Below are positions 2,812-55,028 of a DNA stretch of 64,000 bases, one piece after another (position 1 is the first letter of the stretch; every line of letters starts with the position of its first letter). The translations under genes were made by a program, and so were the position numbers. The notes beneath the pieces are model-generated. The model saw only the letters and a list, made by a program, of their open reading frames with translations. It was not told the DNA's origin and searched no databases. The stretch is from an uncultured Bacteroidales bacterium (GTDB taxonomy: Bacteria > Bacteroidota > Bacteroidia > Bacteroidales > Paludibacteraceae). The DNA lies in contig CALAUA010000015.1 of assembly GCA_937891975.1 (NCBI GenBank), forward strand, positions 145,378 to 209,377, in the 5' to 3' direction.

Positions 2812-2851
2812 ATATCTCTAAACTCTAAACACTAAACACTAAACTCTAAAC
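2812..2851. repeat. Heptamer word array NCTAAAC (B-word) filling a gene junction
   Basis: tctctaaactctaaacactaaacactaaactctaaacact spans the whole gap between the upstream stop (2846-2848, inside the array) and the downstream start (2811). Confidence 0.9.
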
Positions 2852-3808: not shown

Positions 3809-3840
3809 ATCTCTAAACACTAAACTCGAAACACTAAACG
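3809..3840. repeat. B-word array filling the ddl / polyprenyl synthase junction
   Basis: atctctaaacactaaactcgaaacactaaacg. The ddl stop (3834-3836) lies inside it. Confidence 0.9.
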
Positions 3841-4955: not shown

Positions 4956-4972
4956 AAGAAGTAAGAATTTTG

Positions 4973-5043
4973 TTGCCAAACTAGGACTCGAACCCAGACA
5001 GACAGAACCAGAATCTGTAGTGCTACCATTACACCATTTGGCA
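4973..5043 (-). tRNA. tRNA-Gln (anticodon CTG)
   Basis: The reverse complement folds as a cloverleaf. Acceptor TGCCAAA/TTTGGCA, anticodon stem ACAGA/TCTGT with loop TTCTGGT, T-arm GGGTTCGAGTCC. CCA is not encoded. Confidence 0.85.
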
Positions 5044-5800: not shown

Positions 5801-5866
5801 ATCTACAGCCACTTTGTGGCGATCTACCATCTACAGGGCTTTAGCCCGATCTACAGCGCAGCGATC
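5801..5866. repeat. ATCTACAG word copies alternating with GC mini-hairpins
   Basis: atctacag-ccactttgtgg-cgatctacc-atctacag-ggctttagcc-cgatctacag-cgcagcg, immediately 3' of the giant gene 1 stop (5867-5869). Confidence 0.8.
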
Positions 5867-18834: not shown

Positions 18835-18903
18835 GGCATTTGGTCATTGGCTTGACCTCTGCTCACAAAACAAAATAATAACTAGACTAAAATAACAAAA
18901 ATC

Positions 18904-21900
18904 ATGAATACAACATTTACAAATTACGCCGAGAAGAAGGCGAAACAAATTCTTAATCTATTACAAGGCTATACCAAAGGTATACGAATAACTGCCATCC
19001 TCATTCTCCTACTCATGGGAGTTAGTAATGCGTGGGCGTGGACAGCGCACTTTTCTCTTATGGGCGATCCTGTTGGTAATAATTGGCAGAATGATCGAGA
19101 TTTCATGATTAACACAAGTACAGGAACTACGGACGAGTGGTATATCTATGCATATGTAGCAAATAATCAATATTTTGCTTTAAACAATGGAAGTAATCAG
19201 TACGGACCTTCAAGCAACGGTCAGGCTATAAAAAACGGCACAGGTGGAGGTCAGGGCAATTATAATACAAATTCATGGAAATTCACAGGAACTAGTGGAA
19301 TCATAAAGATTTGCTGTGCGGAAAGTAATGACCGTGAATGGTATCCATGGGTATGGGTAGAAGAATCCGCACCAACTATCAAATTTAAACATCCATGGAA
19401 TGGTGGTAGTTGGAGTGAACAAACAGCAACAAAACAAAATGACGGGACATATACCTACGATGGTAAATATGGAAATAACAAAGGCTTTAATGCAGGTCCT
19501 TCTGGTAAGTACAAATATAACGCAAGTCAAACAACCGTAGAAGGTTCACCCGCTACAGGAGATATGTGTAGATTTATTTGGAATCCTGTTGGTTATGTAC
19601 AAGGAGGAGCAGAAACAAAAGCATCTGGAACATTTAAAATTGTTAAACTTTGTTCGCTCACCTATGATGGCAATGGAAAAACAGGAGGAACAGTACCTTC
19701 TGCTACTAACAACCAACTATATAACACATCTATTACATTATCATCCGAAACTTTAACTAAGGCTGGTTATACACATACTGGTTGGAATACCAAAGCAGAT
19801 GGCACAGGAACCCATTATGACAAAGGAGCATCCTACACATTAACAGCAGCGAGTACCACTCTCTATGCAGAATGGACATCTACCGCTCCTACCATAACCA
19901 TTTCTACTGAAAAAACATACTTAAGAACAGCTTATGATAAATTAATTTTAAAGATTTATTACTCAAATATCCCAGAAGGATATACTTATCGTGTCCATGC
20001 AACTCCAGAGGCTTACTTCAATGGTAATGAGAATGGGGATAATGTTGATCGGGTGAGTATTTCAGGTAATGGAAACACTACTTTTGTATCTAATGGATAT
20101 CTTGCCCAGAATCAATATACTGTAGAAGTGATATTATGGAATAATGGTGGTGCAACAGATATAATATCAAATTCCCTTTCCATCACGGTAGAACCTCAAT
20201 TATCTGTTCAAACACGAGCTCGTTTTAATAATCAAATAAACACAACTGCCGCAGAGCACCCACAACCAGAATGGGTACATCCTTCGCAGAATGTAGGAGA
20301 AACAATTACAGCTAGCGAACCGAAACCAGGTTATACATTTGCGGGTTGGACTGCTAATGATGATAACCTTATTAAGTTTGATAATCCTAATTCACTTACA
20401 ACTATTGTTAAATCGAAAGTAAATGGTAATAACAATGCAGTGGCTTACGCCAACTATACCCGTGTAGAAACCTATGCCTTTATACAAGGTCGTTTTCGTG
20501 TGAATAGTGCATCACGAAATCAGATGACATATACTTATGATGATGGTGGTCAATGGAACGAAGGGAGCACTAATATCCAAATGGAATATGATGATACAAA
20601 CTCACGTTTCTATCTTCACACATATATGAAGCCTAAAGAGCTAACAGAGCCCCATGGTACTAATTGTGGTGAATGTAAGCCTTATTTTTATATTAAAACA
20701 AGTACCTCTAGTAGTTCTCTTACGAATGCTACACCATATTGGTCTTCATCCAAACAATATATAATAGAAGCGGGAAAAGAGAACAAAAAGGAATTAACGA
20801 ATTCTTCTAGCAATGTGGTTAACAATAACTTACGCTTTAACACTCAAGATGAATCAGGTTATGTAATATTATATTTCGATCAACAATACATCTGGTATGA
20901 GTTGGAGCATAGATTAGAATACGATGCCAACGGTGGTACAGGTAGTGCACCAAGCAGAACGTATCATCTTAAAGGTTCCACAACTACTACCGCTTCGGAC
21001 AACATATTCACTCGTGACGGCTATGATTTCCAGGGTTGGAACACCAAAGCAGATGGTACGGGCAATCAGTATGAGGCAGAAGCAAACATTACGATAGAGG
21101 CAAACACAACTCTCTACGCACAATGGGCAAAACCAACATTCACCGTTACACTAGACCCACAGGGTGGTACAGACGGAACTACTTCTGTTGAAGCAACTTA
21201 TGGAGAAGAAATGCCCGAAGCAACGATGCCTCAGCGTGAGGGATTTACTTTTGGCGGATATTTCACAGAGACTAATGGCGGTGGCACTCAGTATTACAAT
21301 GCTGATGGCTCTAGTACGAAGAATTGGGATATCAAAGAACCTAAAACCCTCTACGCCAAATGGATACAACAATATGTGATTGTGGGTAATGGTAAAGGTA
21401 GTTGGCTGAATGGTGCTAACTGGATAGAAAGTGTGATAGCAGATGATAGCTTTGACGTTACCAAGCAGTCAAGCAATATTATTGATGGTAGTGTTACCTA
21501 CTCTGCTTGTCCTGCTGGACTGAAGAACTTCCGCATTGTGCCATGGGGTAAATGGGATACAAATCATGGTAAAGAGCAGCTAACTAGTTGCAATGTACCT
21601 TCCTACACCAATGAAGACAATAATATTGCGTTCGTAACTGTGGCGGAAGCTGCCATCACAATCGGATTTGATGGCACGAATATTACAGTACAAGTAGATT
21701 ATGATGCTGAAGATTTAGCCAATGTAAAAGCCGAAGTCGTCGCAGACACAAAACGAATGTTCTATTTTGGAGACGAGTTAACAGATCGATCAAGGCAGTA
21801 TTTATACGTTAATGAACTTGAAAATAGCACAGATAACCACGTTGTTACAGAAACGAAAGGATTACTTTTAGAAGGTGTAGGTGCACAAAAGTGGCTAGCT

Positions 21901-24900
21901 GTGGCGATACTGCCTCCTAAGACATATAACATTTCTAATGATGCTAACTGGGGAGGTGTTTCTACAGGTGAAGTTGTTCAAGCGGGTGCAATATATGCAT
22001 GGCACGGCAATCAAGTGATGGTAAAAACAGCAGGCACCCCGCCGACATTAGGAGATGTAAGCATTAGAGTAGGAAGAGCCAACTCTGGATTAACTGCATC
22101 TGCTGGCGGCTCCTCTATCGGACAGGCACAAACCATCACCGATTACTACTATAAAAAGGAGGGTGAGAGTACTTGGACTAAGTTTGACCCGAATAACGTA
22201 AGTGCTTTGCCAGTAGGTATATACAAGGTACACGCGCTCGCACACGATGGCAATATCTACGTGCGCACCGCAGAACCTGCTACTTTGACGATATATGACG
22301 ATTACACCATCACCTATAAAGATCAAGGCGGTAGTGCTTTCACTGGTGCACACGAAGCTGGTTGTCCTGCTATACACCTCTACGGACAGACAACTGAACT
22401 GAAATCAGCAACCAAAACTGGTTATGAGTTTGGCGGTTGGTTTACAAGTCCAGATTGTACAGGCGAACCTATCACTACACTTGGAGCAACAGATTATACT
22501 GCAGACATTACCCTCTACGCTAAGTGGACTGCCAAGACTTATCCCGTTACCCTTGACCAAACTGGTGCAAAAACACCAGGAACTCCCTCTGTAACTGCTA
22601 CTTATTATGCTGCAATGCCTCACATAGAAACTCTACCTACTCCAAAAGATGGCTATGCATTTGCAGGATATTACGACCAAAAAGATGGCGCAGGTACACA
22701 ATATTATGACGCAGAGGGCGCGAGCGCGCACGTGTGGGATAAGGCAAATGATGGTATTCTCTATGCAAAATGGGAGGCAATCACTTACACCATCACTTAT
22801 CATCTCAACGGTGGAAGTGGCGCCGCAAACAGCACTTACACCATCGAATCTGAGGATATTATCTTACCAACCCCTACTAAAGCAGGTCACACCTTTGGCG
22901 GTTGGTATGACAACGAAGGTTGTACAGGAGAAGCTATTACCAAGATAGCTCAAGGTTCTACTGGCCACAAAGAGTATTGGGCAAAGTGGACAATCAATAG
23001 TTATACCATCCTCTTTGGTACAGAAGATGGCGGAACTGTAAGTGCTACTGTAGGTGGGAATGCAATCAGTAGTGGTACTTCACTTACGTATGGTACACAA
23101 GTTCAATTGACTGCCACTCCCGAACCTGGGTATTCTTTCAGCGAATGGACAAATGGTAGTGGCAATGAGGTTTCTACATCCAATCCTTATACAGTGACCA
23201 TAGACGGCAATATCACCCGAAATGCTGTCTTTATTGAAGCGACTACCCTGTATCTCAAACCAAACGCTGATTGGCTGAAAGACGGTGCACGCTTCGCTGC
23301 GTATGCATTTGATGGAGGAGAGGCAACTTGGTATGATATGGAAGAAGTGGGATGTTCTGGTATTTATTCATGTGCCATTCCGGGAAGTTATAATAAGGTT
23401 ATTTTTGGGCGCATGAATCCAAACAAAACGGAGAATAATTTTGATAATGAAGTAAGATGGGAACAGACCATTGATTTAAGTATTCCAACAGATGGTACTA
23501 ATTTATTCACTGTCACAAACAAGCCAGTAGGAAGCAACTGGAATGGTGAATGGGAATCCGAGCCATTTAATCCTCTAGCATATACTATTACGCTGGAAGG
23601 TGAAGGTGGTACGATAGAAATCACACATGAAGGTGGTACAGCTACGGAGAATACTACTGTAGCACCCAATACCATCATCACCGTTGCTCTTTACCCTCAT
23701 AGCGGTTACACGGTAGGTACACCTAAAATAAAGATTGGTTCCAATGCTGCAGCTAACTTGGTAGTAGGGCAAAAATATACTATTTGCGGACCTACTACGA
23801 TTACCGCTAATTGGGTTGAAACGAAATATGCTGTAGCAGTTAATTCAAACAATAATACTTACGGAACGGTAAGTCCAAGCTCTGTACAAGTGGGACAATA
23901 CACTCCTTCTCAGAAGATTACTGCTACGCCGAAAGCTGGTTATCGTTTTGTGAATTGGACAGCCACCGAAGGTGTGTCAATCAATTCCCCAATCTTTGAA
24001 TCCACCACCATCACTGCTTCCCAAGCAGGTACACTAACCGCCAACTTCGAAAAAGACCCTACCGTTTACCTCAAGCCAAGTGCTGTTTGGAAAAAAGATG
24101 GTGCACGTTTTGCAGTGTATTGGTGGAAGGATACAAAGAACGGTTGGATAGATATGACCACTGTCGGCTGTAACGACGAATATTATACAGCCGAATTGCC
24201 TGCAGGAGTTACGAATTTTAAGTTTGTTAGGTTAAAACCTAGTGGTGGGCATGCTTTTAGCAATGCATGGGATCAGACTATAGATCTTACCTTGCCAACT
24301 AACGCCAACAACCTATTTGCAATGAAAAAATTGCATCTCAATATAGGAGAATGGAATAAAGATAATCAGAAATGTTATGCGGCACACTTCTACAATTCAT
24401 CAAATGAAAGTAAGACCATTAATTTGACCGAAGGTAATGATCCGATGGTTTATTACTGCGATATACCAACGGATAAACATTATACGAATGTTGTGTTCTA
24501 TCGTGTGAATCCTAGTAATACTGGAGAAATATGGCATCAAACAAATGACCTGACTATAGACGGCGATTTCTACACGATTACCTCATTCGGTGGAGATGGT
24601 AACAAAGCAGAAGGTACTTGGACGTTACAGAGTATAGGTGAATGGTTGGCGTTGCCGTTGCCTACTATCACCTACACTCAACCAGAGAATGGTACGATTA
24701 TCGTTAAGACCATACGAGGTGTGGAAATACCTAGCGGAACAAAAGTTCCATGGGATACGCAAGTCCTCGTGTCGGTACAACCGAATACAGGATATTCTGT
24801 TGAATATGCTAATATCGATATTGGTGGTACACAGCATGATGTTCAATCGGGTACACCTTACACCATCTGCGGAAATACAACTATCTCTGCTACCATGGAA

Positions 24901-27897
24901 GAACATACAGATTACTATCTAGTAGGTTTGGATGGTGATTGGAGCCCTAAAGCAACAAACAAGTTTGTGGATGGGAAACTGAATATCAACCTCGAAGGAA
25001 ATGGTACAAAAGAATTTAAAATTATCAAGCAACAAGGTAATGCGCAAAAATGGCTGAGCAAACAGTTTACGTTCAAACCTACGGCTCTCACGACTTCGGG
25101 TATCACTGAGGATGGCGAAAATATGAAGATTGAGACGGTGCATAATGGCATTTACCAGTTTACGTGGAATAATGGTACGCTGACTGTGGCATATCCAGAC
25201 GTATGTTACTTGCATGGAGACTTTAATAGTTGGACAGATCACCCAAATCATGCGTTGCACAACAGAGATGCAAAAGTATTCTTGGAAGAGGGTGTTACGT
25301 ATGAGTTTAAAGTGGCAGAAAAGGGAGTATATCGTACACAGAGCGGCAACTTATGGGAAACTCCGATTACTTATACTGAGGGTGGCAAGACTATTATAAT
25401 GAATGATGCTACTTCTTATGACTCGGAACCACATCATAACTCCAAAATCACCGCTAATATGTCAGGATTCTACATCTTCCATTACGATGCAGAGACAAAG
25501 AAATTAACTATTTCCTTCCCTCTGGATGTAGACGACTATCGTTTAGCGTACAAAGATGATATTCATCCTTTCCACCCTGCAGGAATTTACATCAAACAAT
25601 GCACAAGTGGAGAACAATTGGATACAATAAGTTTCTTCGTACATCATGAGAAAAAACCGCTTATCATTTTACAACAATGCTTGTCAGTCACTGGAAACTC
25701 TGCAACATGGGAAACCGTTTGCACGTATGAAACCACCAAAAATTTAGAAACAAATATTGAAGGTCATGGCATAGATTCGACGGGTGTATTCAACTTTGTA
25801 TTGCAACAAACCAACGACCCTGAACATGCTGCTCAACTCTTGACAGAAGATGTACATCCATACACGGGCGACTACTACATCCGTACAAATGCAGCTCCAG
25901 GTAAGTGGGTGGAATTCCAGCAAGATGGCAACAAAATGACATACAGCAGTTATGCAGATAACAACGAGCCATTTAGCCACTACTTCTGTAAGTGGGTATC
26001 CACAGAAGCAGAAGCTGCAAATAATACAAATAATGTGAAATATACCATTGCCAATGACTATAGCTATTGCATATCCGACACTTTGGCTGCTGACCCAGAA
26101 GATGCAAGTCCTCGAATTGTGGCAAATGCAAGTGGTGATTTGCCTACCAATAGCGCAAACGTGCGCTTTGGTTGGGATTGGGGTACCAACCAACTTACAC
26201 GTGCATACATGGCAGGTGCTACTAATGCCACAGCGGCTACATTCTTACGAATAGAACAAGCAGAGGACTTGGAGAATAACGAAGGAGCGGCTGTAACAGA
26301 GATTAATTTTACAGACTTGCAAAACTGGATTTATCAAGTGGATGTGAGAGCCAAAAACACAACAACGATAAAACTGACTGCGCTGTATGCTGAGCATCTA
26401 CAATATTTCAAGGGTGATAAAGATAATAGCATGAGGTTGTTGTCGAGTGATGCAGCGGAGAATAAATGGTTTAATATGCGATTAACTTATGATTTCAAGA
26501 CGAACCACTTGATTATAGCTTGGTTACCTGATGATAAACCAATAGGGGGTGAGTTAGATGCAGATATGATGGTGATTCGTGAGCACAATAGGACTGGTGT
26601 ATCGGTTACTCAATTAAATTTGAATAATGCCTTGGAAAAGGTGAAAACAGTATATGCCGTGATGAGCTTTACACAAGATTGGATTAAGAAAAACTCGCGT
26701 GAGCAAAGCATCTACTGGGTATCCTTCCCATTTGATGTGAAACTCTCTGAGGCATTCGGATTCGGAGAGTATGCCGATGCGTGGATCATGCAATACTACG
26801 ATGGCGAAGAACGTGCTAAGAAGGGTTTATATGCAAACTCAGGTACCTATTGGAAGTATATCTTTGATCCAGAGACGATATTAAAGAAAGGTGTGGGTTA
26901 CGTATTGGTACTTGATCTAAATAAGGTTAAGTTTAATCATGGTGTAAATAGCGTTAGTCTCTATTTCCCATCCAATGGTGAGGTGGGTACGATTACGCAA
27001 GCGGAGGAGCCAAATGTCACAGTAGAGGTACCTGCTCACCAATGTAATTTAGGTGTAAGTACAACAGGTATGGATCATAATATTACGGACTCGCACTGGA
27101 ACCTCATTGGTGTACCTGCGTTCAAAGAAATTGACCAATTCAATGTTACGCAATACCATTATGACCAACAAGATGCTAGTTTCTACTATAAGTTCAATAC
27201 GAATTTGAGTAAGTACACTGTTATAAGTTCTACAAGTGTGACTTTCGAAGCAATGTATTCGTATATGGTACAGTTTGCTGGAACAATCAACTGGACAACC
27301 AAAACAGTTGAGGGTGTTACTCCTGCCCAACTCGCAGCACGTCGCAATAGCGAGAGTGAGTTGCCAGAGAAGGTAGTTCTGAACGTAGAGTTGCTTCAAG
27401 GTGAAGAGATGGCAGACCAAACTTTCGTACAACTGCAGCAAGAGGGCGCAACCGCTGACTTTGATATGAACCTCGACCTCACGAAGATTATCAATAGTGG
27501 TGCGAACATCTACACCCTCGCAGGCGAGCAACGTATCCAGTCTGCAGGTAATGCGCTGCCAATGGGCGAAGCCATTGTGCCAGTGGGTGTACAAATCGCT
27601 ACCGAAGGCGAATACACCTTCCGTATGCCTGACGGCACAGAGGGTGTGGTGGTAGAACTCATTGACTACGAGACCAATACGCGTACCAATCTTTTGCTTA
27701 GCGATTATATCGTCACCCTGCCAAAGGGCACAGAAGAAAATCGTTTTGCACTGCATATCCAACCTGAGAAGGATGTGACCACAGGAGTGGGTAATGTAGG
27801 CGATGAGGCGAAAGGCATTGAGAAATACCTCATCGACGGCAAACTCATCATCCGCACCGCAGAGGGTATCTTCGATGCGCAGGGACATAGGTTGTAA
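18904..27897 (+). CDS. Giant cell-surface protein with Listeria-Bacteroides (InlB B) repeats and a T9SS-like C-terminal tail
   Basis: Uninterrupted 2997-aa ORF. Leader is near-identical to giant gene 1. Canonical repeats such as YDGNGKTGGTVP...KAGYTHTGWNTKADGTGTHYDKGASYTL..STTLYAEW. The last ~100 aa are near-identical to giant gene 1. Confidence 0.9.
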   Translation: MNTTFTNYAEKKAKQILNLLQGYTKGIRITAILILLLMGVSNAWAWTAHFSLMGDPVGNNWQNDRDFMINTSTGTTDEWYIYAYVANNQYFALNNGSNQYGPSSNGQAIKNGTGGGQGNYNTNSWKFTGTSGIIKICCAESNDREWYPWVWVEESAPTIKFKHPWNGGSWSEQTATKQNDGTYTYDGKYGNNKGFNAGPSGKYKYNASQTTVEGSPATGDMCRFIWNPVGYVQGGAETKASGTFKIVKLCSLTYDGNGKTGGTVPSATNNQLYNTSITLSSETLTKAGYTHTGWNTKADGTGTHYDKGASYTLTAASTTLYAEWTSTAPTITISTEKTYLRTAYDKLILKIYYSNIPEGYTYRVHATPEAYFNGNENGDNVDRVSISGNGNTTFVSNGYLAQNQYTVEVILWNNGGATDIISNSLSITVEPQLSVQTRARFNNQINTTAAEHPQPEWVHPSQNVGETITASEPKPGYTFAGWTANDDNLIKFDNPNSLTTIVKSKVNGNNNAVAYANYTRVETYAFIQGRFRVNSASRNQMTYTYDDGGQWNEGSTNIQMEYDDTNSRFYLHTYMKPKELTEPHGTNCGECKPYFYIKTSTSSSSLTNATPYWSSSKQYIIEAGKENKKELTNSSSNVVNNNLRFNTQDESGYVILYFDQQYIWYELEHRLEYDANGGTGSAPSRTYHLKGSTTTTASDNIFTRDGYDFQGWNTKADGTGNQYEAEANITIEANTTLYAQWAKPTFTVTLDPQGGTDGTTSVEATYGEEMPEATMPQREGFTFGGYFTETNGGGTQYYNADGSSTKNWDIKEPKTLYAKWIQQYVIVGNGKGSWLNGANWIESVIADDSFDVTKQSSNIIDGSVTYSACPAGLKNFRIVPWGKWDTNHGKEQLTSCNVPSYTNEDNNIAFVTVAEAAITIGFDGTNITVQVDYDAEDLANVKAEVVADTKRMFYFGDELTDRSRQYLYVNELENSTDNHVVTETKGLLLEGVGAQKWLAVAILPPKTYNISNDANWGGVSTGEVVQAGAIYAWHGNQVMVKTAGTPPTLGDVSIRVGRANSGLTASAGGSSIGQAQTITDYYYKKEGESTWTKFDPNNVSALPVGIYKVHALAHDGNIYVRTAEPATLTIYDDYTITYKDQGGSAFTGAHEAGCPAIHLYGQTTELKSATKTGYEFGGWFTSPDCTGEPITTLGATDYTADITLYAKWTAKTYPVTLDQTGAKTPGTPSVTATYYAAMPHIETLPTPKDGYAFAGYYDQKDGAGTQYYDAEGASAHVWDKANDGILYAKWEAITYTITYHLNGGSGAANSTYTIESEDIILPTPTKAGHTFGGWYDNEGCTGEAITKIAQGSTGHKEYWAKWTINSYTILFGTEDGGTVSATVGGNAISSGTSLTYGTQVQLTATPEPGYSFSEWTNGSGNEVSTSNPYTVTIDGNITRNAVFIEATTLYLKPNADWLKDGARFAAYAFDGGEATWYDMEEVGCSGIYSCAIPGSYNKVIFGRMNPNKTENNFDNEVRWEQTIDLSIPTDGTNLFTVTNKPVGSNWNGEWESEPFNPLAYTITLEGEGGTIEITHEGGTATENTTVAPNTIITVALYPHSGYTVGTPKIKIGSNAAANLVVGQKYTICGPTTITANWVETKYAVAVNSNNNTYGTVSPSSVQVGQYTPSQKITATPKAGYRFVNWTATEGVSINSPIFESTTITASQAGTLTANFEKDPTVYLKPSAVWKKDGARFAVYWWKDTKNGWIDMTTVGCNDEYYTAELPAGVTNFKFVRLKPSGGHAFSNAWDQTIDLTLPTNANNLFAMKKLHLNIGEWNKDNQKCYAAHFYNSSNESKTINLTEGNDPMVYYCDIPTDKHYTNVVFYRVNPSNTGEIWHQTNDLTIDGDFYTITSFGGDGNKAEGTWTLQSIGEWLALPLPTITYTQPENGTIIVKTIRGVEIPSGTKVPWDTQVLVSVQPNTGYSVEYANIDIGGTQHDVQSGTPYTICGNTTISATMEEHTDYYLVGLDGDWSPKATNKFVDGKLNINLEGNGTKEFKIIKQQGNAQKWLSKQFTFKPTALTTSGITEDGENMKIETVHNGIYQFTWNNGTLTVAYPDVCYLHGDFNSWTDHPNHALHNRDAKVFLEEGVTYEFKVAEKGVYRTQSGNLWETPITYTEGGKTIIMNDATSYDSEPHHNSKITANMSGFYIFHYDAETKKLTISFPLDVDDYRLAYKDDIHPFHPAGIYIKQCTSGEQLDTISFFVHHEKKPLIILQQCLSVTGNSATWETVCTYETTKNLETNIEGHGIDSTGVFNFVLQQTNDPEHAAQLLTEDVHPYTGDYYIRTNAAPGKWVEFQQDGNKMTYSSYADNNEPFSHYFCKWVSTEAEAANNTNNVKYTIANDYSYCISDTLAADPEDASPRIVANASGDLPTNSANVRFGWDWGTNQLTRAYMAGATNATAATFLRIEQAEDLENNEGAAVTEINFTDLQNWIYQVDVRAKNTTTIKLTALYAEHLQYFKGDKDNSMRLLSSDAAENKWFNMRLTYDFKTNHLIIAWLPDDKPIGGELDADMMVIREHNRTGVSVTQLNLNNALEKVKTVYAVMSFTQDWIKKNSREQSIYWVSFPFDVKLSEAFGFGEYADAWIMQYYDGEERAKKGLYANSGTYWKYIFDPETILKKGVGYVLVLDLNKVKFNHGVNSVSLYFPSNGEVGTITQAEEPNVTVEVPAHQCNLGVSTTGMDHNITDSHWNLIGVPAFKEIDQFNVTQYHYDQQDASFYYKFNTNLSKYTVISSTSVTFEAMYSYMVQFAGTINWTTKTVEGVTPAQLAARRNSESELPEKVVLNVELLQGEEMADQTFVQLQQEGATADFDMNLDLTKIINSGANIYTLAGEQRIQSAGNALPMGEAIVPVGVQIATEGEYTFRMPDGTEGVVVELIDYETNTRTNLLLSDYIVTLPKGTEENRFALHIQPEKDVTTGVGNVGDEAKGIEKYLIDGKLIIRTAEGIFDAQGHRL

Positions 27898-27922
27898 GAT
27901 TGCTGCCCAAAAACCTCGCTGA

Positions 27923-27968
27923 AGGTTAAAGGTTAAAGGCGAGAGGTTAGAGGTTAGAGGCGAGGATA
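27923..27968. repeat. Heptamer word array GGTTAAA/GGTTAGA/GGCGAGA (F-word)
   Basis: aggttaaaggttaaaggcgagaggttagaggttagaggcgagg, just 3' of the giant gene 2 stop. Confidence 0.9.
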
Positions 27969-27971
27969 AGA

Positions 27972-28006
27972 AAAATGAGTTGGACACCAATCCAACTCAT
28001 TTTTTA
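27972..28006 (+). terminator. Rho-independent terminator of giant gene 2
   Basis: Perfect 10-bp stem atgagttgga/tccaactcat, 6-nt loop, then TTTTT. Confidence 0.8.
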
Positions 28007-28016
28007 CATTCCAGCC

Positions 28017-28114
28017 TTTACACTTTACACCCTACACTTTACACCTTACACTTTACACCTTACACCCTACACCCTACACTTTACACCTTACACTCTACAC
28101 CTTACACCCTACAC
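28017..28114. repeat. Fourteen tandem heptamers YYTACAC (C-word)
   Basis: tttacac tttacac cctacac tttacac cttacac ..., an uninterrupted 7-nt phase that continues into a B-word unit tctaaac. Confidence 0.95.
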
Positions 28115-28151
28115 TCTAAACAGTAGCCCACATCGTGGGCGTTCACTAAAC
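28114..28151. repeat. B-word / GC-hairpin / B-word composite element (copy 1)
   Basis: ctctaaacagta-gcccac-atc-gtgggc-gttcactaaac. Confidence 0.8.
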
Positions 28152-28259
28152 CGCATCATTGGCACACATCCGTCACGTGGCTAGTGGTAACCGAGTGGTT
28201 TGCGAACTTCAAAATATGTTATATTTTCTCTAAAATTTGGATAATTCAGAAAAAAGCAG

Positions 28260-32158: not shown

Positions 32159-32178
32159 TCACTATTTCATCATACTAA

Positions 32179-32211
32179 AATAGGCTACCTTTTGTAGGTA
32201 GCCTATTTTTT
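32179..32211 (+). terminator. Rho-independent terminator
   Basis: taggctacc / ggtagccta stem followed by TTTTTT. Confidence 0.8.
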
Positions 32212-32256
32212 GTTTAGAGAACGCTCACAAAGCGAACTTCTGTTTAGTGTTTAGAG
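32211..32256. repeat. B-word / hairpin / B-word composite element (copy 2)
   Basis: tgtttagagaa-cgct-cacaa-agcg-aacttctgtttagtgtttagag. The stop of gene 32251..32607 lies in the last word. Confidence 0.8.
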
Positions 32257-32844: not shown

Positions 32845-32884
32845 AAAAATGCACTTTTTTTTGAGAAAAGTGCATCTTTTTGTT
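32845..32884 (-). terminator. Hairpin terminator downstream of the WYL gene (possibly bidirectional)
   Basis: atgcactttt / aaaagtgcat stem flanked by A-run and T-run. Confidence 0.6.
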
Positions 32885-32915
32885 TAGTGTTTAGAGTTTA
32901 GTGTTTAGAGGCTGG
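32881..32915. repeat. B-word array
   Basis: tgtttagtgtttagagtttagtgtttagaggctggg. The ending ttagaggctggg recurs at 62868-62880. Confidence 0.9.
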
Positions 32916-33841: not shown

Positions 33842-33870
33842 GAGTGTTTAGAGTTTAGTGTTTAGTGATT
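33842..33870. repeat. B-word array at the U32 / WYL junction
   Basis: gagtgtttagagtttagtgtttagtgatt. The U32 stop (33855-33857) is inside the array. Confidence 0.9.
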
Positions 33871-35618
33871 CGCATTTCGCAGTGTTTGCAGTCGAACTCT
33901 AGAGTGAGGATAGTGCCGTTTTGCAAACGCAGATAGCGTGGTTCGTTGGTCATAGGATTGCTCTTCCTACAGTGTCCTAACTCATGGAGGATACAATATT
34001 TGCAGGTCATGAGGGGGTAATGGGACGCTTCGCTGTAGGACGGCGTGCCGCCTATTGGATATTGGACGCCCGTTGGGCTATTGGGTAATGGACGCTTCGC
34101 TATTGGATATTGGACGCCCTGCGGGCTATGGGAAGCAATGAGCTCTCTACGCCATTGGTTGAGTAAGCTAGTAGGTATGAAATATGGGAAGGTGTCGGAG
34201 CATAATTGGTCGTGTGCAAAGATTTGGATATCGTTGGCGATATAATCAGTATCTCCGAGTTTGCTCAATTGCTGAATGATGGTTTGTAATGCACGCTCTG
34301 GGTTAGTGGCAGATTGATGCTCCGCTTCAAATATCGTACTCTTCTCTCCGATTGTTAGGCGATAGCCTTCTGGTATTATCTCAAAACGAATATCTACTGG
34401 TATTTGTCGTTTGGCTCGCAGCGAACGTAGAAATTCGTTATCGAGATTTCTATACAGCGTTGTTCCGATTACCCGATTCCCGATTTGCGACACCTGAATA
34501 TTTGGAAAAATCCAATCACCTTCTATACGGTTGATTGCGAAGCCTTGATCTTCGTAGCAGATACCATCGCCATTATGCAACGTGATATTGGGACGCAGTT
34601 GCACACGAATGGCATTGTGCTTGGTGGCAATGACTGTGCCAATCTTCTCGCCTGTGGATTTGGGTGTTTGCCAATTCGCCATTTTGGCGGTGCGACCGTG
34701 CAAGAAATAATCAGTACCTCCACGATGAAAAGTCTTAGCAGGGTTAGGAGTGAAACTATATTGATAGACCGAACGTGTAGAGGCATGTTGTAGAGTAGGA
34801 TGACTATCCATTAGTTGGTCAAGCAGTTGACGATAGTATGCCACAATATTGGTGACATAGTCGCGATCCTTTAATCTGCCCTCAATCTTGAAGGTGGTTA
34901 TGCCCGCTTCAATCATCTCAGCAAGATAGCGACTGCGGTCCATATCTTGCAACGAAAGCAGGTAACGCTGGTGAATAGGTTGTCCATTGTTGTCTATAAT
35001 CTCATTGCCATCTTTGTCTAGTAAATCGTAGCGTTGACGGCAGAGTTGGGCGCAGCAACCGCGATTGGCACTACGATTCATCAATGCCTCCGATAGATAA
35101 CATCTACCGCTATAGCTCACGCAAAGGGCTCCGTGGACGAAGGCTTCGAGTTCGATGGGGGCGACTTCGTCGCGGTGTAGGGTGTAGGGGGTAGAGTGTA
35201 AAGTATGGTGGATGTCGCGGATTTGTTCGAGGGATAGTTCGCGTGCGAGGACAGCACGACGGAACCCCATTTGTTGCAAGCGAAGTACTTGCTCTGGGGT
35301 GCGGTTGTCGCATTGCGTAGAAGCATGCAAGCGAATAGGTGGCAAATCGTAATCCAGCAAATGTAGGTCTTGGATAATAAGAGCATCTACTCCTACCTTA
35401 TATAGTTCGTGCGCGAGCGCGCATGCGCGAGGATATTCATCTTCGTGGAGCAGGGTGTTGAGTGTGACAAGTACTTTAACACCAAAGCGATGGGCATACT
35501 TGACCAACTGCGTAATATCCTCCAAAGAGTTGCCTGCTGCTTGGCGCGCACCAAACTCGGGTGCACCAATGTACACCGCATCAGCACCCGCTTGAATGGC
35601 TGCTATTCCTACTTCCAA
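33855..35618 (-). CDS. Peptidase U32 family protein (long form)
   Basis: AGADAVYIGAPEFGARQAAGN, EAFVHGALCVSYSGRCYLS. The conserved N-terminal SLLAPARDLE continues in frame upstream of the TTG at 35618, so the true start may lie at 35643-35666. Confidence 0.85.
   Translation of the reverse strand: MEVGIAAIQAGADAVYIGAPEFGARQAAGNSLEDITQLVKYAHRFGVKVLVTLNTLLHEDEYPRACALAHELYKVGVDALIIQDLHLLDYDLPPIRLHASTQCDNRTPEQVLRLQQMGFRRAVLARELSLEQIRDIHHTLHSTPYTLHRDEVAPIELEAFVHGALCVSYSGRCYLSEALMNRSANRGCCAQLCRQRYDLLDKDGNEIIDNNGQPIHQRYLLSLQDMDRSRYLAEMIEAGITTFKIEGRLKDRDYVTNIVAYYRQLLDQLMDSHPTLQHASTRSVYQYSFTPNPAKTFHRGGTDYFLHGRTAKMANWQTPKSTGEKIGTVIATKHNAIRVQLRPNITLHNGDGICYEDQGFAINRIEGDWIFPNIQVSQIGNRVIGTTLYRNLDNEFLRSLRAKRQIPVDIRFEIIPEGYRLTIGEKSTIFEAEHQSATNPERALQTIIQQLSKLGDTDYIANDIQIFAHDQLCSDTFPYFIPTSLLNQWRRELIASHSPQGVQYPIAKRPLPNSPTGVQYPIGGTPSYSEASHYPLMTCKYCILHELGHCRKSNPMTNEPRYLRLQNGTILTLEFDCKHCEMRITKH
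34021..34135. repeat. TATTGGA/CTATTGG word block (D-word) inside the U32 CDS
   Basis: ...ggacggcgtgccgcctattggatattggacgcc...gctattggatattggacgccc... encodes GVQYPIAKRPLPNSPTGVQYPIGGTPSYSE. Confidence 0.85.
34463..34490. repeat. E-word heptamers inside the U32 CDS
   Basis: ttccgattacccgattcccgatttgcga encodes QIGNRVIG. Confidence 0.75.
35174..35206. repeat. C-word heptamers inside the U32 CDS
   Basis: ggtgtagggtgtagggggtagagtgtaaagtat encodes HTLHSTPYTLH. Confidence 0.8.
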
Positions 35619-35650: not shown

Positions 35651-35683
35651 AGTTGACAATTGACAGTTTACAGTTGACAGTTA
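35651..35683. repeat. GACAGTT/GACAATT word array at the trmH-like / U32 junction
   Basis: agttgacaattgacagtttacagttgacagtta. Includes the upstream stop codon. Confidence 0.85.
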
Positions 35684-36208
35684 GCGGAGCATATTGCTGA
35701 GTTGGTACATGACTATACCAGCAGTAACGCTGACGTTGAGCGAGTGCTTGGTACCATACTGCGGAATCTCAATACAACCATCGGCAGCATCTACTACCTC
35801 TTGTTGTACACCAAACACCTCATGTCCCATCACAATAGCAGTCTTTTGATTTTGAGGCAATTGTAGGTCACCAAGCATGGTCGCTCCATGTGCTTGCTCA
35901 ATGGCATAGACCGTATAGCCGTCGGCTTGCAACGCCTTGACGGCATCCAGAGTGTGCTCAAAATAGCGCCAATCCACGGTGAGTTCTGCACCGAGGGCGG
36001 TCTTGTGAATCTCGTTGTTGGGTGGACAGCAACATATTCCACACAGCCATACTCCTTGCAGGCAAAATGCATCCGCTGTGCGGAATACGGCACCGATATT
36101 ATGTTGGCTGCGGACATTGTCCAGTACCACAACGAGGGGTACCTTCTGTGCCTCGTGGAATGCCTCTGGGGTGAGGCGGTTCATTTCTTGTATCGTTGTT
36201 TTTTGCAT
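35681..36208 (-). CDS. SpoU/TrmH-family RNA 2'-O-methyltransferase
   Basis: LVVVLDNVRSQHNIGAVFRTADAF, IVMGHEVFGV, IEIPQYGTKHSLNVSVTAGIVMY. Confidence 0.85.
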   Translation of the reverse strand: MQKTTIQEMNRLTPEAFHEAQKVPLVVVLDNVRSQHNIGAVFRTADAFCLQGVWLCGICCCPPNNEIHKTALGAELTVDWRYFEHTLDAVKALQADGYTVYAIEQAHGATMLGDLQLPQNQKTAIVMGHEVFGVQQEVVDAADGCIEIPQYGTKHSLNVSVTAGIVMYQLSNMLR

Positions 36209-36244: not shown

Positions 36245-36343
36245 AATAGTGCGTGTATTGTGCGTTTATTGTGCGTGTATTGTGCGTGAATAGTGCGTCT
36301 ATTGTGCGTGTATTGTGCGTGAATAGTGCGTCTATTGTGCGTG
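36245..36343. repeat. Nine tandem 11-nt units WATWGTGCGTN (G-word)
   Basis: aatagtgcgtg tattgtgcgtt tattgtgcgtg ..., exact 11-nt phase. Fills the rimM / trmH-like junction and encodes the last residues and stop of rimM. Confidence 0.95.
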
Positions 36344-36841
36344 AAATATAAAAGGCAAACAGATGGTCAGTAATTCGTTTTCTTGGTCAATATTGATGAT
36401 AAAATCCTCGTGTAGCGGAATGAGTTGGTCGTTGTCAAGGGTGATGAGGGTGTTGATAGTGGTTTCATCCACGTGTACGATGGTGCCCAGTTCGCCTTGA
36501 TCGGTATCCAATACTCGGTAGCCCGTAAGACTTTGCCAAGTAGGCAGCAGTTCATCTTCTTCGCTTAGATCGCTGGCGAGCATATATGCCTGACAACCAA
36601 TGAGTGCTTGTGCCGATTGTTCATCCGTGATATGATCCAGTTGGAAGATAAGCGAGTCGCTACCTTTGCCACGCCAATCAAGTACACGGAAAGGAACAAG
36701 GATATTGTCGATGTTGAGAATAAGGAAAGTAGCATCTGCATTATCCCAAAACTCGTTGCTAGTAAGGCACTGAATTTCACCACGTTTCCCATGTGTGCGG
36801 GTGATGCGGCCAATAGCTATTACTTCTTCTTTTGTTATCAT
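36332..36841 (-). CDS. rimM: Ribosome maturation factor RimM
   Basis: IGRITRTHGKRGEI N-terminal motif, a PRC-barrel-like C-terminus, and size 169 aa. Confidence 0.8.
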   Translation of the reverse strand: MITKEEVIAIGRITRTHGKRGEIQCLTSNEFWDNADATFLILNIDNILVPFRVLDWRGKGSDSLIFQLDHITDEQSAQALIGCQAYMLASDLSEEDELLPTWQSLTGYRVLDTDQGELGTIVHVDETTINTLITLDNDQLIPLHEDFIINIDQENELLTICLPFIFHAQ

Positions 36842-47118: not shown

Positions 47119-47916
47119 CTACTCTTTTCGGAAAATATCTTCGGGATATTCTACATGCGTGAGAAATAGCCCTTCAGCAGGGGCTGAGTCGCCTGCTGCG
47201 CAGCGGTTGTGCTGCGTGATGACCTCGGCAAACTGCTCCTTAGTCATCTTACCACGACCGACTTCAAACAATGTACCTACTACCGCACGCACCATATTAC
47301 GCAGAAAACGGTCAGCAGCGATAGTGAATACGGCGTGTCCGTTGCCCAATTCTTTCCACTCAGCACGCGTAAGGTCGCAAATCGTGGTCTTGACATCCGT
47401 ATTCGTGCGGCAGAAAGAAGCAAAATCCTGTTTGCCAATCAACAATTGTGCTGCCTCATTCATCGCTGCGAAGTCCAATCCTGGGCGTACACGCGTGGCT
47501 TGTGTACAAAGGAAAGGGTCTTTGTGATCAATGATATGATATTCGTATGTACGACGCACTGCATCAAAGCGTGCATGCGCATCATCCCTCACAGGGTAAA
47601 CATCAAAGACTGCGATAGAATCGGGCAAAATGCCGTTGAGGCGGAAGACCAAATTAGGGGGTATAGGACGCACTATTGGGCTATTGGACGGTGTTCCGCC
47701 TATTGGATATTGGCTATTGGGTAAATCAAAATGCGCATACATCTCGCGGGCATGTACACCTGCGTCGGTGCGACCAGCAAAAGTGAACGGTACCTCCTCA
47801 CGGAAAATCATAGCCAACGCCTGTTCCATAGTTTCCTGAACAGTCACGCCATTAGGCTGGCGTTGCGAGCCATGAAAGGCAGTACCATCATATGCAAAGC
47901 GGAGGAAATAGCGCAT
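47119..47916 (-). CDS. truA: tRNA pseudouridine(38-40) synthase TruA
   Basis: RYFLRFAYDGTAFHGSQRQPNG, AGRTDAGVHA, RFLRNMVRAVVGTL. Confidence 0.9.
   Translation of the reverse strand: MRYFLRFAYDGTAFHGSQRQPNGVTVQETMEQALAMIFREEVPFTFAGRTDAGVHAREMYAHFDLPNSQYPIGGTPSNSPIVRPIPPNLVFRLNGILPDSIAVFDVYPVRDDAHARFDAVRRTYEYHIIDHKDPFLCTQATRVRPGLDFAAMNEAAQLLIGKQDFASFCRTNTDVKTTICDLTRAEWKELGNGHAVFTIAADRFLRNMVRAVVGTLFEVGRGKMTKEQFAEVITQHNRCAAGDSAPAEGLFLTHVEYPEDIFRKE
47660..47721. repeat. D-word block inside the truA CDS
   Basis: ctattgggctattggacggtgttccgcctattggatattggctattgg encodes NSQYPIGGTPSNSPIV. Shares about 30 nt with the U32 insert. Confidence 0.85.
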
Positions 47917-47919
47917 GTT

Positions 47920-47957
47920 CTGTTTAGTGGACGCCCTAAAGGGCTACTGTTTAGTGA
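47920..47957. repeat. B-word / hairpin / B-word composite element (copy 3)
   Basis: ctgtttagtggac-gccc-taaa-gggc-tactgtttagtga. Fills the flippase / truA junction and encodes the flippase C-terminus ITKQ and its stop. Confidence 0.85.
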
Positions 47958-54191: not shown

Positions 54192-54236
54192 TCTCTAAAC
54201 ACTAAACAGTAGCGCTGAAAGCGCGTTCACTAAACG
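54192..54236. repeat. B-word / hairpin / B-word composite element (copy 4)
   Basis: tctctaaacactaaacagta-gcgc-tgaaa-gcgc-gttcactaaacg. Fills the junction upstream of rsmI. Confidence 0.85.
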
Positions 54237-55025
54237 TTACGCGAAGCGTCTCTTGAGTACGTTCTCGAAGAGTTGTACTGCGGTGGACTCTTTGTCCCAA
54301 TCGAAGTTGTCGAGCACGTAGTCCATCGCCTCGTTGAGTGAACCGAGATTGTTAATTTCATCCAATGTTTTTTGCATCAACTCACCATTGCCTGCAAAGA
54401 GTTCGCGTTGAAAGAGGAAACGGTCCCCCAAAGAGATAGCTTGGCGGATATCCTCTACTGCCGCACCAAACAACGATGTTTGTTGTGGCACAGGACGTGG
54501 AGCAGGTTGTGGAGCAGGTGCTGGCTCTACCACTGGCTCTGCCTTTACTTCTGGTTGTGGAGCAGGTTCCACGATTGGTTCCACCACTGGCTCTGCCGTT
54601 GCTTCTGGTTGTGGAGCAGGTGCTGGCGCTACAACTGGTTCTTCTACAACCGGTGCTTCTACCTCTGGAGTATCTATAATATCCAGCGTTTCTAGTTCTT
54701 CTTTAACTTCCTCTTGTGGTTTTTCTGCGGGCTCTTCAGCGAACTCGTTTTCAATTGTCACCTCTTCGTTTTCACTTTCAGTTTCTTCTTCAACGATGAG
54801 TTCGATCTCTACTTCTGGTTCTGCAGCTTGTGCAGCTACAGCACCTGTAGCTGCCAATGCAGCCACTTCGGCTTGCAAGGTTGCTATTAGGGCTTTCGCC
54901 TCATCGCCTTCTCGCCTCATTGCCTCATTGGCTTCTTCGAGTTGCGCCACACGCGCCTCCAGAGCAGAGAGTTTCTGCTCCAGAGCGGTCGTGTAGTTGG
55001 TTATTGCTTGAATAAGATTGTTCAT
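54237..55025 (-). CDS. Hypothetical protein: coiled coil + acidic / Pro-rich EPVVEP repeats + C-terminal globular domain
   Basis: 262-aa ORF. Low-complexity centre PAPAPQPEATAEPVVEPIVEPAPQPEVKAEPVVEPAPAPQPAP. Confidence 0.5.
   Translation of the reverse strand: MNNLIQAITNYTTALEQKLSALEARVAQLEEANEAMRREGDEAKALIATLQAEVAALAATGAVAAQAAEPEVEIELIVEEETESENEEVTIENEFAEEPAEKPQEEVKEELETLDIIDTPEVEAPVVEEPVVAPAPAPQPEATAEPVVEPIVEPAPQPEVKAEPVVEPAPAPQPAPRPVPQQTSLFGAAVEDIRQAISLGDRFLFQRELFAGNGELMQKTLDEINNLGSLNEAMDYVLDNFDWDKESTAVQLFENVLKRRFA
54896..54932. repeat. A-word octamers inside the CDS
   Basis: ttcgcctcatcgccttctcgcctcattgcctcattgg encodes NEAMRREGDEAK. Confidence 0.8.
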
Positions 55026-55028
55026 AGA

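Follow-up and report, generated by a model that had tools for sequence, protein, structure and literature searches.

Pairing-defined hairpin modules in the heptamer arrays of Paludibacteraceae-type gut Bacteroidales

Background

The 64,000-nucleotide (nt) stretch of DNA analysed here, referred to hereafter as the window, is part of contig CALAUA010000015.1 (positions 145,378 to 209,377, forward strand) from a genome assembly of an uncultured Bacteroidales bacterium of the family Paludibacteraceae (GCA_937891975.1). At four places it carries an element in which words of the form GTTTAGW enclose a short G/C hairpin, and this hairpin changes its sequence from copy to copy while staying paired. 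An initial annotation, made from the letters alone, took such covariation between conserved flanks as the signature of a selected structure in RNA or cruciform DNA. The locus raises the question of what the covariation records: a structured signal that serves the host in its transcripts, or the passage of a repeat through a folded form of its own DNA. The data presented here show a modular DNA repeat with a structure-constrained hairpin and do not show a gene-specific RNA signal.

The window is 88–93% identical to contigs of gut metagenome-assembled genomes (MAGs) labelled Paludibacteraceae or 'uncultured Bacteroidales', and its species is contained in more than 20 public metagenome assemblies; a sigma-54 activator and a DUF4301 protein are among its gene products. 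The heptamer arrays had raised the suspicion of a cyanobacterial origin, which was rejected on account of these two genes, the 93% identity to Bacteroidales MAGs and a HIP1 count of 0. Further copies were collected by a single scan of a genome collection with the pattern GTTTAGWGRACG-N4-24-CTACTGTTTAG, in which flanks and linkers were fixed and pairing was not demanded. The loci sampled, labelled with L-numbers (L014, L117 and so on), are 119 in number and together comprise ~900 kb of DNA, with at most 11 copies sampled per genome; genes across these loci were called with a crude open reading frame (ORF) model.

Results

Four copies of the element in the window

Read in the sequence, the four copies lie where the initial annotation had placed them, with the stems and 3–5-nt loops it had given:

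47922..47956, plus strand: copy 1, GTTTAGT-GGAC-(GCCC-TAAA-GGGC)-TACT-GTTTAGT G, hairpin at 47933-47944, flanks GTTTAGTG on both sides
28114..28151, minus strand: copy 2, GTTTAGT-GAAC-(GCCCAC-GAT-GTGGGC)-TACT-GTTTAGA G, hairpin at 28126-28140, flanks GTTTAGTG and GTTTAGAG
32212..32256, plus strand: copy 3, atypical, GTTTAGAG flank, GTTTAGA-GAA-(CGCT-CACAA-AGCG)-AACTTCT-GTTTAGT GTTTAGA G, hairpin at 32222-32234, then GTTTAGTG(TTTAGAG)
54193..54235, minus strand: copy 4, GTTTAGT-GAAC-(GCGC-TTTCA-GCGC)-TACT-GTTTAGT GTTTAGA G, hairpin at 54212-54224, flanks GTTTAGTG, then GTTTAGTG(TTTAGAG)

The word GTTTAGWG occurs 26 times in the window, against 4.08±2.3 expected. The composite GTTTAGWGRAC-N9-19-CTGTTTAG is found four times and 0.00 times in 100 shuffles, and a covariance model (R1) built solely from copies of other genomes recovers exactly the same four, with E-values of 6e-10 (copy 4), 9e-9 (copy 1), 2.7e-8 (copy 2) and 1.7e-4 (copy 3), its next matches (E ≥ 0.87) being plain heptamer arrays. 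Taken together, these results exclude chance. The folding energies of single copies in the window are unremarkable (z from +0.3 to −3.4) and are not used as evidence; support for the structure is therefore comparative.

Flanks and linkers are shared as claimed by copies 1, 2 and 4; copy 3 deviates in its 3' linker (AACTTCT in place of TACT), and the covariance model leaves its hairpin unaligned. The view of the flanking words as parts of a fixed composite signal has to be given up. They are units of period-7 tandem arrays, and many different heptamer arrays run throughout the window, so that the flanks represent array context rather than isolated boxes; the element is a heptamer array that holds a GRAC-hairpin-TAY module, and the same module recurs in arrays of other words. 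Four further GTTTAGW arrays in the window contain no module:

2816..2851, minus strand: array filling an intercistronic gap
3811..3839, minus strand: array at an intercistronic gap
32882..32910, plus strand: array
33846..33867, plus strand: array, whose ortholog in L090 has GAAC-GCTCG-TAA-GCGAGC-TACT

Three of the copies had been thought to sit exactly between a stop and the next start, which applies to two only, at 47922 and 54193. Copy 1 is antisense to its minus-strand neighbours, its module containing the TAG stop of the upstream gene (47944-47946) and its end lying 5 nt from the start of truA (47916); L115 carries its sequence unchanged. Copy 4, sense to the minus-strand genes around it, occupies the gap between a stop at 54237 and a start at 54185. 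Copy 2 is antisense to plus-strand genes and adjoins an array of 14 TTACACC heptamers (28018-28114) that lies downstream of a gene for a protein of 2997 aa, 217 nt past the stop of this giant gene and 144 nt ahead of the next start. Copy 3 directly follows a canonical 14-bp terminator hairpin (32177-32209), 53 nt past a stop codon, and faces a convergent ORF; the orthologous site in L090 has a different palindrome. As a separate observation, canonical bidirectional terminators (A-tract, hairpin, T-tract) adjoin heptamer arrays at 27975-28005 and 32177-32209, and the stem of the second shows compensatory changes in its L090 ortholog.

The hairpin is defined by pairing

The scan of the genome collection returned at least 131 copies on at least 113 stretches, with at least 71 different cores; among the matches listed, all stretches were Paludibacteraceae or Bacteroidales MAGs, with one 1.9-kb contig labelled otherwise. 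The distinct cores of at least 10 nt number 61; of these, 54 have a perfect outer stem of at least 4 bp, compared with 1.25% of shuffled cores, and 53 are wholly paired except for a loop of 3–5 nt. Stems are 5 bp long in 36 cores, 4 bp in 13 and 6 bp in five, the loop has 3 nt in 38 of the 61, and the commonest form is a 5-bp stem with a triloop. Stem bases are 93% G or C (257 of 275), compared with 44% G+C in the genome. When the 35 distinct 13-nt cores, unselected for pairing, were aligned without gaps, 98.3% of pair cells were standard and 46 cells had changed on both sides, a score matched by none of 500 shuffles, with slid controls giving 22–54%. The 137 hits of the covariance model in 100 loci are 98.0% paired and include 113 double changes. 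Diversity of this kind is present within single genomes, as in JAFYSB, with nine different cores among 11 copies, and likewise in JAZNPR.

Since a scan that required no pairing yielded paired cores, the pairing constraint is genuine. The claim that the hairpin differs in each copy while its pairing is kept agrees with the larger copy set, and the covariation test proposed for it in the initial annotation came out strongly in its favour. We conclude that the hairpin is defined by pairing, not by sequence. At the three middle stem pairs, swaps between G-C and C-G are the commonest differences (CG 21 and GC 14, GC 16 and CG 15, GC 19 and CG 10); being free of wobble intermediates, they are better fitted by copy replacement or arm-to-arm template switching than by stepwise compensatory substitution.

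A search of the window against Rfam at gathering thresholds returned one tRNA only, with no family covering the element, and four module-rich loci searched at E-values up to 1 matched nothing relevant. The repeat family is apparently undescribed, with no account of it in Rfam or the searchable literature. A scan of viral contigs for the repeat gave 0 matches, and carriage by phages was rejected as an explanation. We conclude that the pairing-defined hairpin repeat is a widespread repeat of gut Bacteroidales, similar to structured mini-repeats of the kind of repetitive extragenic palindromes (REPs) and small dispersed repeats (SDRs).

Module anatomy and the 7-nt cores

The module consists of G-R-A-C, a hairpin (4–6 bp, almost purely G/C, starting with G and ending with C, with a 3–5-nt loop) and T-A-Y(-T), so read on one strand; the opposite strand gives (G)TAG, the hairpin and CGTYC. 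Spacers between GTTTAGW units fall into two size classes, of ~21 nt (GRAC, a 13-nt hairpin and TACT) and of 15 nt (GRAC, a 7-nt core and TACT). Modules with cores of 11–16 nt between GRAC and TACT measure 19–24 nt, 21 nt being commonest. Copies outside the search pattern still have GRAC, followed by TAC in about three quarters of cases and by TAT in most of the rest. Loop inversions are present, as in GGCGC-AAA-GCGCC and GGCGC-TTT-GCGCC. The idea that GAA and TACT are the halves of a split heptamer was considered and rejected, the unsplit GAATACT never being found between GTTTAGW units.

About a quarter of copies have 7-nt cores, with GCTTCGC in 19 copies and GCTGCGC in 12, and 31 of the 38 short cores are complements of GCGNAGC (GCTTCGC of GCGAAGC, GCTGCGC of GCGCAGC). 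As DNA, d(GCGNAGC) mini-hairpins melt at 70–76 °C (GCGAAGC at 76 °C, GCGCAGC at 71 °C), and their RNA counterparts have a much lower stability (PMC13037366). By analogy, the (G)TAG strand as DNA would be the only form in which the 7-nt cores fold into stable mini-hairpins. At flanks that are 95% identical, L031 has GCGGC-TGA-GCCGC and L083 has GCGGCGC, which indicates that the long and the 7-nt core classes interconvert.

Gene context and orientation

In the loci listed, 84 copies lie between co-directional genes, 46 of them antisense and 38 sense, while 17 lie between convergent and seven between divergent genes. Relative to the upstream gene, 55 copies are sense and 53 antisense. On the GTTTAG strand, A outnumbers T in the loops of sense copies (29 vs 15) and of antisense copies (50 vs 24) alike, so that the polarity of the loop goes with the element and not with the transcript. 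Among the GCTTCGC cores with gene context, 12 of 15 are sense. Gaps are tightly filled: the stop codon usually lies −11 to +6 nt from the element, and for antisense copies the next start follows 5–11 nt past the CACTAAAC end. With a TAG in the word, or a TAA when the opposite strand is read, all three reading frames are closed by an array.

Orthologous sites, strains and copying between sites

Across 73 pairs of loci anchored by their flanks, those with flanks 93–97% identical mostly have the same hairpin and vary in array length (two modules in L110, five in L036), while at 79–89% identity position, words and linkers persist and the hairpin differs in sequence, still perfectly paired. The ortholog of copy 4 is a true compensatory replacement, with GCGC-TGAAA-GCGC in the window, GCCC-GAA-GGGC in L111, and position and flanks kept. 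Another site has GGCGC-AAA-GCGCC, GCCC-TGC-GGGC and GCGCC-ATGC-GGCGC (three times) in L017, L037 and L035, respectively, and a further orthologous pair GCCC-TGC-GGGC and GGCAC-TTTTC-GTGCC.

Presence and number of modules differ as well. At one site L037 is empty (CAT/CGTTTGG...), L033, L110 and L036 have one, two and five modules, and L082 has a single module in inverted orientation. At another, a clean 21-nt module is present in L037 (gtttagt-GAACGCGGCAGAGCCGCTACT-gtttagt) and L090, and pure heptamers are found in L036, L110, L033 and the window (33846-33867). A 3-nt spacer of the window (TCT, 55026-55028) corresponds to a 68-nt insert of two modules in L051 and L111. Further to that, L014 has flanks 95–98% identical to those of L083 and L031 (98% to L083) and an entirely different intergenic array, made of GTTAGAC/TTCTAAC words with the hairpins GCCC-TGC-GGGC and GCACC-TGC-GGTGC, where the other two have GTTTAGW arrays; between these close relatives the intergenic cassette has been replaced as a whole.

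Strains of the window species vary too. A 14-nt heptamer duplication is seen at copy 1, and in four of six conspecific contigs a G-to-A change in this copy leaves its stem, read in the mRNA sense, with a C.A mismatch. Strains L120 and L121, in which the downstream gene is identical, lack copy 2 and its arrays: compared with window positions ~27900-28170, the sigma-54 activator is identical, the upstream segment is different and homology begins at CCGTCACGTGG. In these strains the giant gene encodes 2169–2170 aa, compared with 2997 aa in the window, and is followed by two extra small genes, which indicates that its 3' region and the repeat arrays are strain-variable. Identical 13-nt hairpins are shared by 24 pairs of non-orthologous sites, including two sites within one genome, against 3.65±2.0 pairs expected (P < 1/2000). 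Comparison of orthologous intergenic sites shows that modules are tandemly duplicated, gained, lost, replaced and even inverted.

Modules in other word arrays and in reading frames

The pattern (G)RAC, hairpin (G...C), TA(Y), or simply C followed by a hairpin, recurs in arrays of TATTGGA, ACAAAAATA and ATCTACA words, the form in the second of these families being ACAAAAATA-C(hairpin)-TACAAAAATA. A 'relative' of the element that had been pointed out at 5801-5866 proves to be real and to follow the same module logic. The window contains the following:

5801..5866, plus strand: ATCTACA mosaic with reversed polarity (hairpin, then G), directly downstream of the stop of a 2345-aa gene, with a weak model hit at 5807-5820; its modules are GCCAC-TTT-GTGGC at 5808-5820, GGGC-TTTA-GCCC at 5836-5847 and the 7-nt core GCGCAGC at 5856-5862
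34020..34140, plus strand: TATTGGA array with five modules, each GGAC, core and TAT or TGT, forming a period-26 repeat, in frame in a U32-peptidase ORF (33855..35618)
47660..47730, plus strand: heptamers of the TATTGGA type holding a module, GGTG-TTC-CGCC with a single G.T pair, in frame in truA (47119..47916, minus strand)
35161..35206, plus strand: hairpin GCGAC-TTC-GTCGC adjoining a GGTGTAG heptamer array, a weak model hit

The five cores at 34020-34140 are, in order, GCTTCGC, GGCG-TGC-CGCC, GCCC-GTT-GGGC, GCTTCGC and GCCC-TGC-GGGC. The array separates the DUF3656 domain from a Cys-rich C-terminal segment of the predicted product (U32 peptidase plus DUF3656), and the L090 ortholog has ~38 nt there. 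The truA insert encodes ...QYPIGGTPSNSPIVRP..., a stretch of 15 residues that is extra in comparison with Escherichia coli TruA (PDB 1dj0) and that the L115 ortholog shares.

Other repeats in the window

Apart from the heptamer arrays, two blocks of several 11-nt tandem repeats (14314-14487 and 18698-18838) are mutually inverted, 88–89% complementary and 4.2 kb apart, each upstream of one of two divergent giant-gene operons (5867..12904, minus strand, and 18904..27897, plus strand). The two blocks may represent leaders or promoters of common design, or else mark where a segment that can invert or move ends; the DNA between them contains a Bro-N gene and an AAA_14/DUF4143 ATPase gene. A 176-nt inverted repeat (14642-14817 and 15342-15517) has arms that are 91% complementary and 524 nt apart. 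An 8-nt tandem repeat (TCGCCTCA / CCTCATCG) lies at 3977-4035, 4435-4472 and 54896-54928, inside the minus-strand ORFs 3834..4979 and 54237..55025. An 11/33-nt tandem repeat of 8.6 units, GTGCGTGTATT, extends over 36249-36343 between 35681..36208 and 36332..36841 and includes the palindrome AATAG-TGCGT-CTATT.

Discussion

A DNA repeat whose spread may require folding

We suggest, with slightly better than even confidence, that each copy is a unit of a dispersed mosaic repeat of Paludibacteraceae-type Bacteroidales, built of GTTTAGW arrays and a hairpin module. The modules would propagate as DNA, either inserting in the manner of transposons or passing by gene conversion from array to array where words are held in common. 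The copying step would need a folded single strand, only stem-keeping variants would spread, and covariation would be the result; in other words, covariation would reflect selection for propagation, as may be compared with REP/REPIN elements, IS200/IS605 ends and integron attC sites. The GCTTCGC and GCTGCGC cores suggest that what folds is probably the (G)TAG strand as single-stranded DNA. Propagation at the level of DNA is favoured by the equality of the two orientations despite asymmetric conserved flanks, by a loop polarity that follows the element, by 7-nt cores predicted to fold stably only as DNA of one strand, by gain, loss and inversion at orthologous sites together with identical hairpins at unrelated sites, and by the spread of modules over word families and into coding regions in frame. 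For the host, the arrays would mean stop codons in all frames, unstructured spacers and, whichever way they face, a small stem-loop in polycistronic transcripts; the host may put up with these effects or have come to use them secondarily, as in the case of REP elements.

Several points weigh against a repeat spreading in this manner. No machinery for it was found, the sole Y1/HUH gene in the ~900 kb sampled (L117, resembling REP-associated tyrosine transposases, RAYTs) having a different hairpin, and neither a target-site duplication nor clean element ends could be defined. At flanks at least 87% identical the hairpin is usually unchanged, so that movement is not fast, and neutral sites are saturated at ~80% gene identity, so that compensatory evolution in situ under host selection could also give rise to differing hairpins. 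The snug placement between stop and start and the preservation of words and linkers at saturating divergence would fit a host function as well; they argue that the arrays are at the very least well tolerated in the gaps. The five G.U-type and three A.C-type pairs carry no information on the strand, and imperfect stems in a clear gene context are too few for an asymmetry between the two mismatch types to tell RNA from DNA. Finally, the loci were ascertained by one strict pattern, which makes the copy numbers, genome-wide counts and taxonomic spread lower bounds.

Alternative explanations

An explanation that deserves serious attention, even if we consider it unlikely, is a host-selected RNA stem-loop in polycistronic transcripts, which would protect the 3' or 5' end of a cistron, mark a processing site or uncouple translation; the heptamer words would act as spacers free of structure or as sites for proteins to bind, and a G/C palindrome would fold whichever strand is transcribed. 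Most copies do lie in very short gaps between co-directional genes, near a stop and a start, position, flanks and pairing persist between species while the stem sequence changes, the RNA stems have predicted energies of −6.8 to −10.3 kcal/mol with G.U-type pairs tolerated, and REPs are thought to act in such a way (PMC3733652). However, the transcribed strand is not preferred (46 vs 38) in spite of a strong asymmetry of the conserved flanks, the base composition of the loops follows the element and not the transcript, and the 7-nt cores, which in the case of GCTTCGC are mostly sense, give an RNA stem of just 2 bp. The C.A mismatch that four of six conspecific contigs have in copy 1, in the stem as read in the mRNA sense, speaks against an RNA role too, as do modules in frame inside coding regions, the lack of modules in the same gaps of close relatives and the weak single-copy z-scores. 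The proposal of a selected structure in RNA or cruciform DNA is thus borne out as far as structure rather than sequence is constrained, but the choice that it offers is not decided in favour of a selected RNA signal; orientation is nearly even. A role in RNA may have been acquired secondarily, for example as an intercistronic REP-like stabiliser or insulator. With respect to cruciforms, stems of 4–6 bp are probably too short for extrusion from duplex DNA. An intrinsic (Rho-independent) terminator or attenuator, in which the G/C hairpin would be followed by a T-rich tail (TACTGTTTAGTGTTTAG), is very improbable. In a permissive scan for terminators, copies 2 and 4 are picked up when read in the GTTTAG orientation, owing to the T-rich TACTGTTT, and copy 4 is sense to its operon. 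Yet such hits are no more frequent than in shuffles, sense and antisense copies relative to the upstream gene are equal (55 vs 53), the T-richness of the tail is only moderate in one orientation and lacking in antisense copies (GTTCACTAAAC), stems have just 4–6 bp, copy 3 immediately follows a canonical 14-bp terminator, and many copies occupy gaps of 30–70 nt within apparent operons. Less credible still is a duplex-DNA operator for a dimeric sequence-specific regulator, as a palindrome with a 3–5-bp centre beside gene starts could suggest: half-sites vary freely within one genome (nine different cores among the 11 copies of JAFYSB), as do arm length and spacing, which is incompatible with base-specific recognition of the arms. 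Both the terminator and the operator readings were rejected on the grounds of sequence variability and orientation.

The hairpins could also be a mutational by-product without selection for structure, intrastrand template switching at quasi-palindromes copying one arm from the other and slippage building and reshuffling the arrays. One-step flips from G-C to C-G match the commonest stem differences, loop inversions such as GGCGC-AAA-GCGCC / GGCGC-TTT-GCGCC exist and the number of array units differs between strains (the 14-nt duplication), but we regard this origin as improbable, as it leaves unexplained a hairpin with conserved GRAC/TAY linkers at hundreds of sites in several word families, almost pure G/C stems (257 of 275 bases) in a 44% G+C genome, and identical hairpins at unrelated sites. 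Template switching itself needs a formed hairpin and would therefore be a mechanism of maintenance, not of origin. A bolder form of the DNA-repeat explanation, and a distinctly doubtful one, would make the modules 'nano' mobile elements defined by structure only, in which a single-stranded DNA hairpin of 8–17 nt with a linker of ~7 nt colonises heptamer arrays, a Bacteroidota counterpart of the SDRs with which it would share hairpin-dependent machinery for insertion and copying. Candidates for this machinery are the domesticated Y1/HUH subclasses that Quentin et al. met almost exclusively in Cyanobacteria and Bacteroidetes; it would construct and reshape the heptamer arrays of Cyanobacteria, Bacteroidota and Beggiatoaceae, rewrite intercistronic spacers rapidly and insert in frame into proteins.

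Implications

If propagation of the modules as DNA is the right explanation, the genomes of gut and rumen Bacteroidales each hold, in hundreds of copies, a fold-defined repeat that ranks among the smallest structured ones known and that rewrites the gaps between operon genes faster than the genes diverge, supplies stop codons, alters C-termini and adds short peptide insertions (e.g. in TruA). It would be a second, phylogenetically distant case of hairpin mini-elements in heptamer arrays, earlier known only from Nostoc, and the question of how such elements move would become testable by comparative genomics, for instance through the gene families that co-occur with them. A caution follows for the discovery of RNA motifs: strong covariation with conserved flanks can reflect the propagation of a DNA repeat instead of a host RNA function. 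In practice, the arrays of heptamers and modules interrupt assemblies made from short reads, and they could be of use as markers in the typing of strains.

Comparison with known systems

Integron attC sites are 57–141 bp long, have R and L boxes and extrahelical bases, and stand beside cassettes and an integrase. The ends of IS200/IS605 elements are single-stranded DNA hairpins recognised by their structure and short flanks, and they flank a transposase gene (PMC6006769). Like both, the module has short conserved flanks and a stem that is free in sequence and kept in pairing, and this precedent indicates that covariation can arise from a recombinase recognising folded single-stranded DNA; unlike both, it has neither a cassette-integrase nor a transposase context. 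Natural d(GCGNAGC) sequences are known from single-strand origins of phages and plasmids and from promoters, and not as dispersed chromosomal repeats (Hirao and co-workers; PMC13037366); the dominant 7-nt cores match them exactly on the (G)TAG strand, a likeness known here at the level of sequence. As for the arrays, MacGregor (2015) described intergenic heptamer repeats (TAACTGA etc.) in Beggiatoaceae, Cyanobacteria and some Bacteroidetes including Paludibacter (PMC4679880). Ours are similar in being tandem heptamers in short gaps, often a few nt from starts, with several families per genome and variation between close relatives. Those arrays differ in being plain, of a different word and mostly forward to the downstream gene, with no hairpin modules described.

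The SDRs of Nostoc punctiforme (SDR1-8, in particular SDR4, SDR5 and SDR6), attributed to work by Elhai and co-workers from 2008, are reportedly 21–27 nt long and often located in tandem heptamer (STRR) arrays. They are said to share a predicted structure with compensatory changes, to be present or absent at conserved sites and hence thought mobile, and to encode no protein. Each SDR family reportedly has a consensus sequence, nested self-insertions are said to occur (SDR1, SDR4), and the families are reportedly confined to a subgroup of cyanobacteria. The modules resemble them in size (19–24 nt), in being non-coding and dispersed in many copies (four in the 64-kb window, more than 130 in related MAGs), in their embedding in tandem heptamers, in precise presence or absence between relatives (as in L037 and L090) and in a common secondary structure backed by compensatory changes. 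Set against these descriptions, the host here is a member of the Bacteroidota, the stem sequence varies widely within one genome, the family being defined by linkers and structure, no nested modules were seen, and 7-nt GCGNAGC-type cores have no described counterpart among the SDRs. SDR5 is described as inserting into HIP1 (PMC4390886, PMC3116915); the HIP1 count in the window is 0.

REPs tagged with GTAG are defined by a GT[AG]G tetranucleotide 0–2 nt 5' of the hairpin foot (PMC6006769, PMC3733652), with stems of at least 7 nt (PMC6006769) or of 6–13 bp, exceptionally 5 (PMC3733652), a G/C-rich base and a loop of 2–5 nt. Similarly, the ACTAAAC strand of the module has (G)TAG at the foot of a G/C hairpin with a 3-nt loop, and a short conserved motif on the other side. 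GTAG overlaps the first stem base in all pattern copies; copies outside the 3' pattern mostly have GTAG or ATAG there, and copy 3 of the window has no GTAG. Like these REPs, the modules are extragenic, mostly between unidirectional or convergent genes and in both orientations, form sub-families with complementary stem changes and occasionally occur in frame within genes; tandem clusters mixed with other conserved motifs are common to the modules, GTAG REPs and bacterial interspersed mosaic elements (BIMEs). Copies of a GTAG REP within a genome form one or a few families, each with a consensus stem; among the modules, nine different cores in 11 copies stand beside identical 13-nt hairpins at unrelated sites. 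Differences are an apparently far greater stem diversity per genome, at up to 11 copies sampled in each, the embedding in heptamer arrays and stems of 4–6 bp, which are below both published lengths except for the 5-bp stems of Thauera GTAG-1 REPs (PMC3733652); the same study did not report GTAG REPs in Bacteroidetes.

A six-frame scan of the window and the 119 loci for HUH/Y motifs found one Y1_Tnp-like gene, in L117 (Pfam, 6.3e-5), which is not flanked by the GTTTAG module. This Y1_Tnp/RAYT-like gene (3444-4472, minus strand; motifs DHVH ... YIQDNP) has CTTGCRGACGGAAC... hairpins on both flanks, and its hairpin (CTTGCRG-ACGGAAC-...) is also inserted in frame, which matches the REP-inside-gene trait of RAYT subclass 2.4; another copy is present in L018. 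As this cognate hairpin differs from the GTTTAG module, no REPtron link was found in the DNA searched. According to Quentin et al. (2018), Y1/HUH subclasses 1.2 and 2.4 are concentrated in Cyanobacteria and Bacteroidetes, and 2.6 in Bacteroidetes (PMC6006769). These appear to be largely the same phyla as those with heptamer arrays, which we take as a lead, not a result. GTAG-tagged REPs are the closest known system in anatomy, and the SDRs, of which the module described here is not a family member, are the closest in behaviour.

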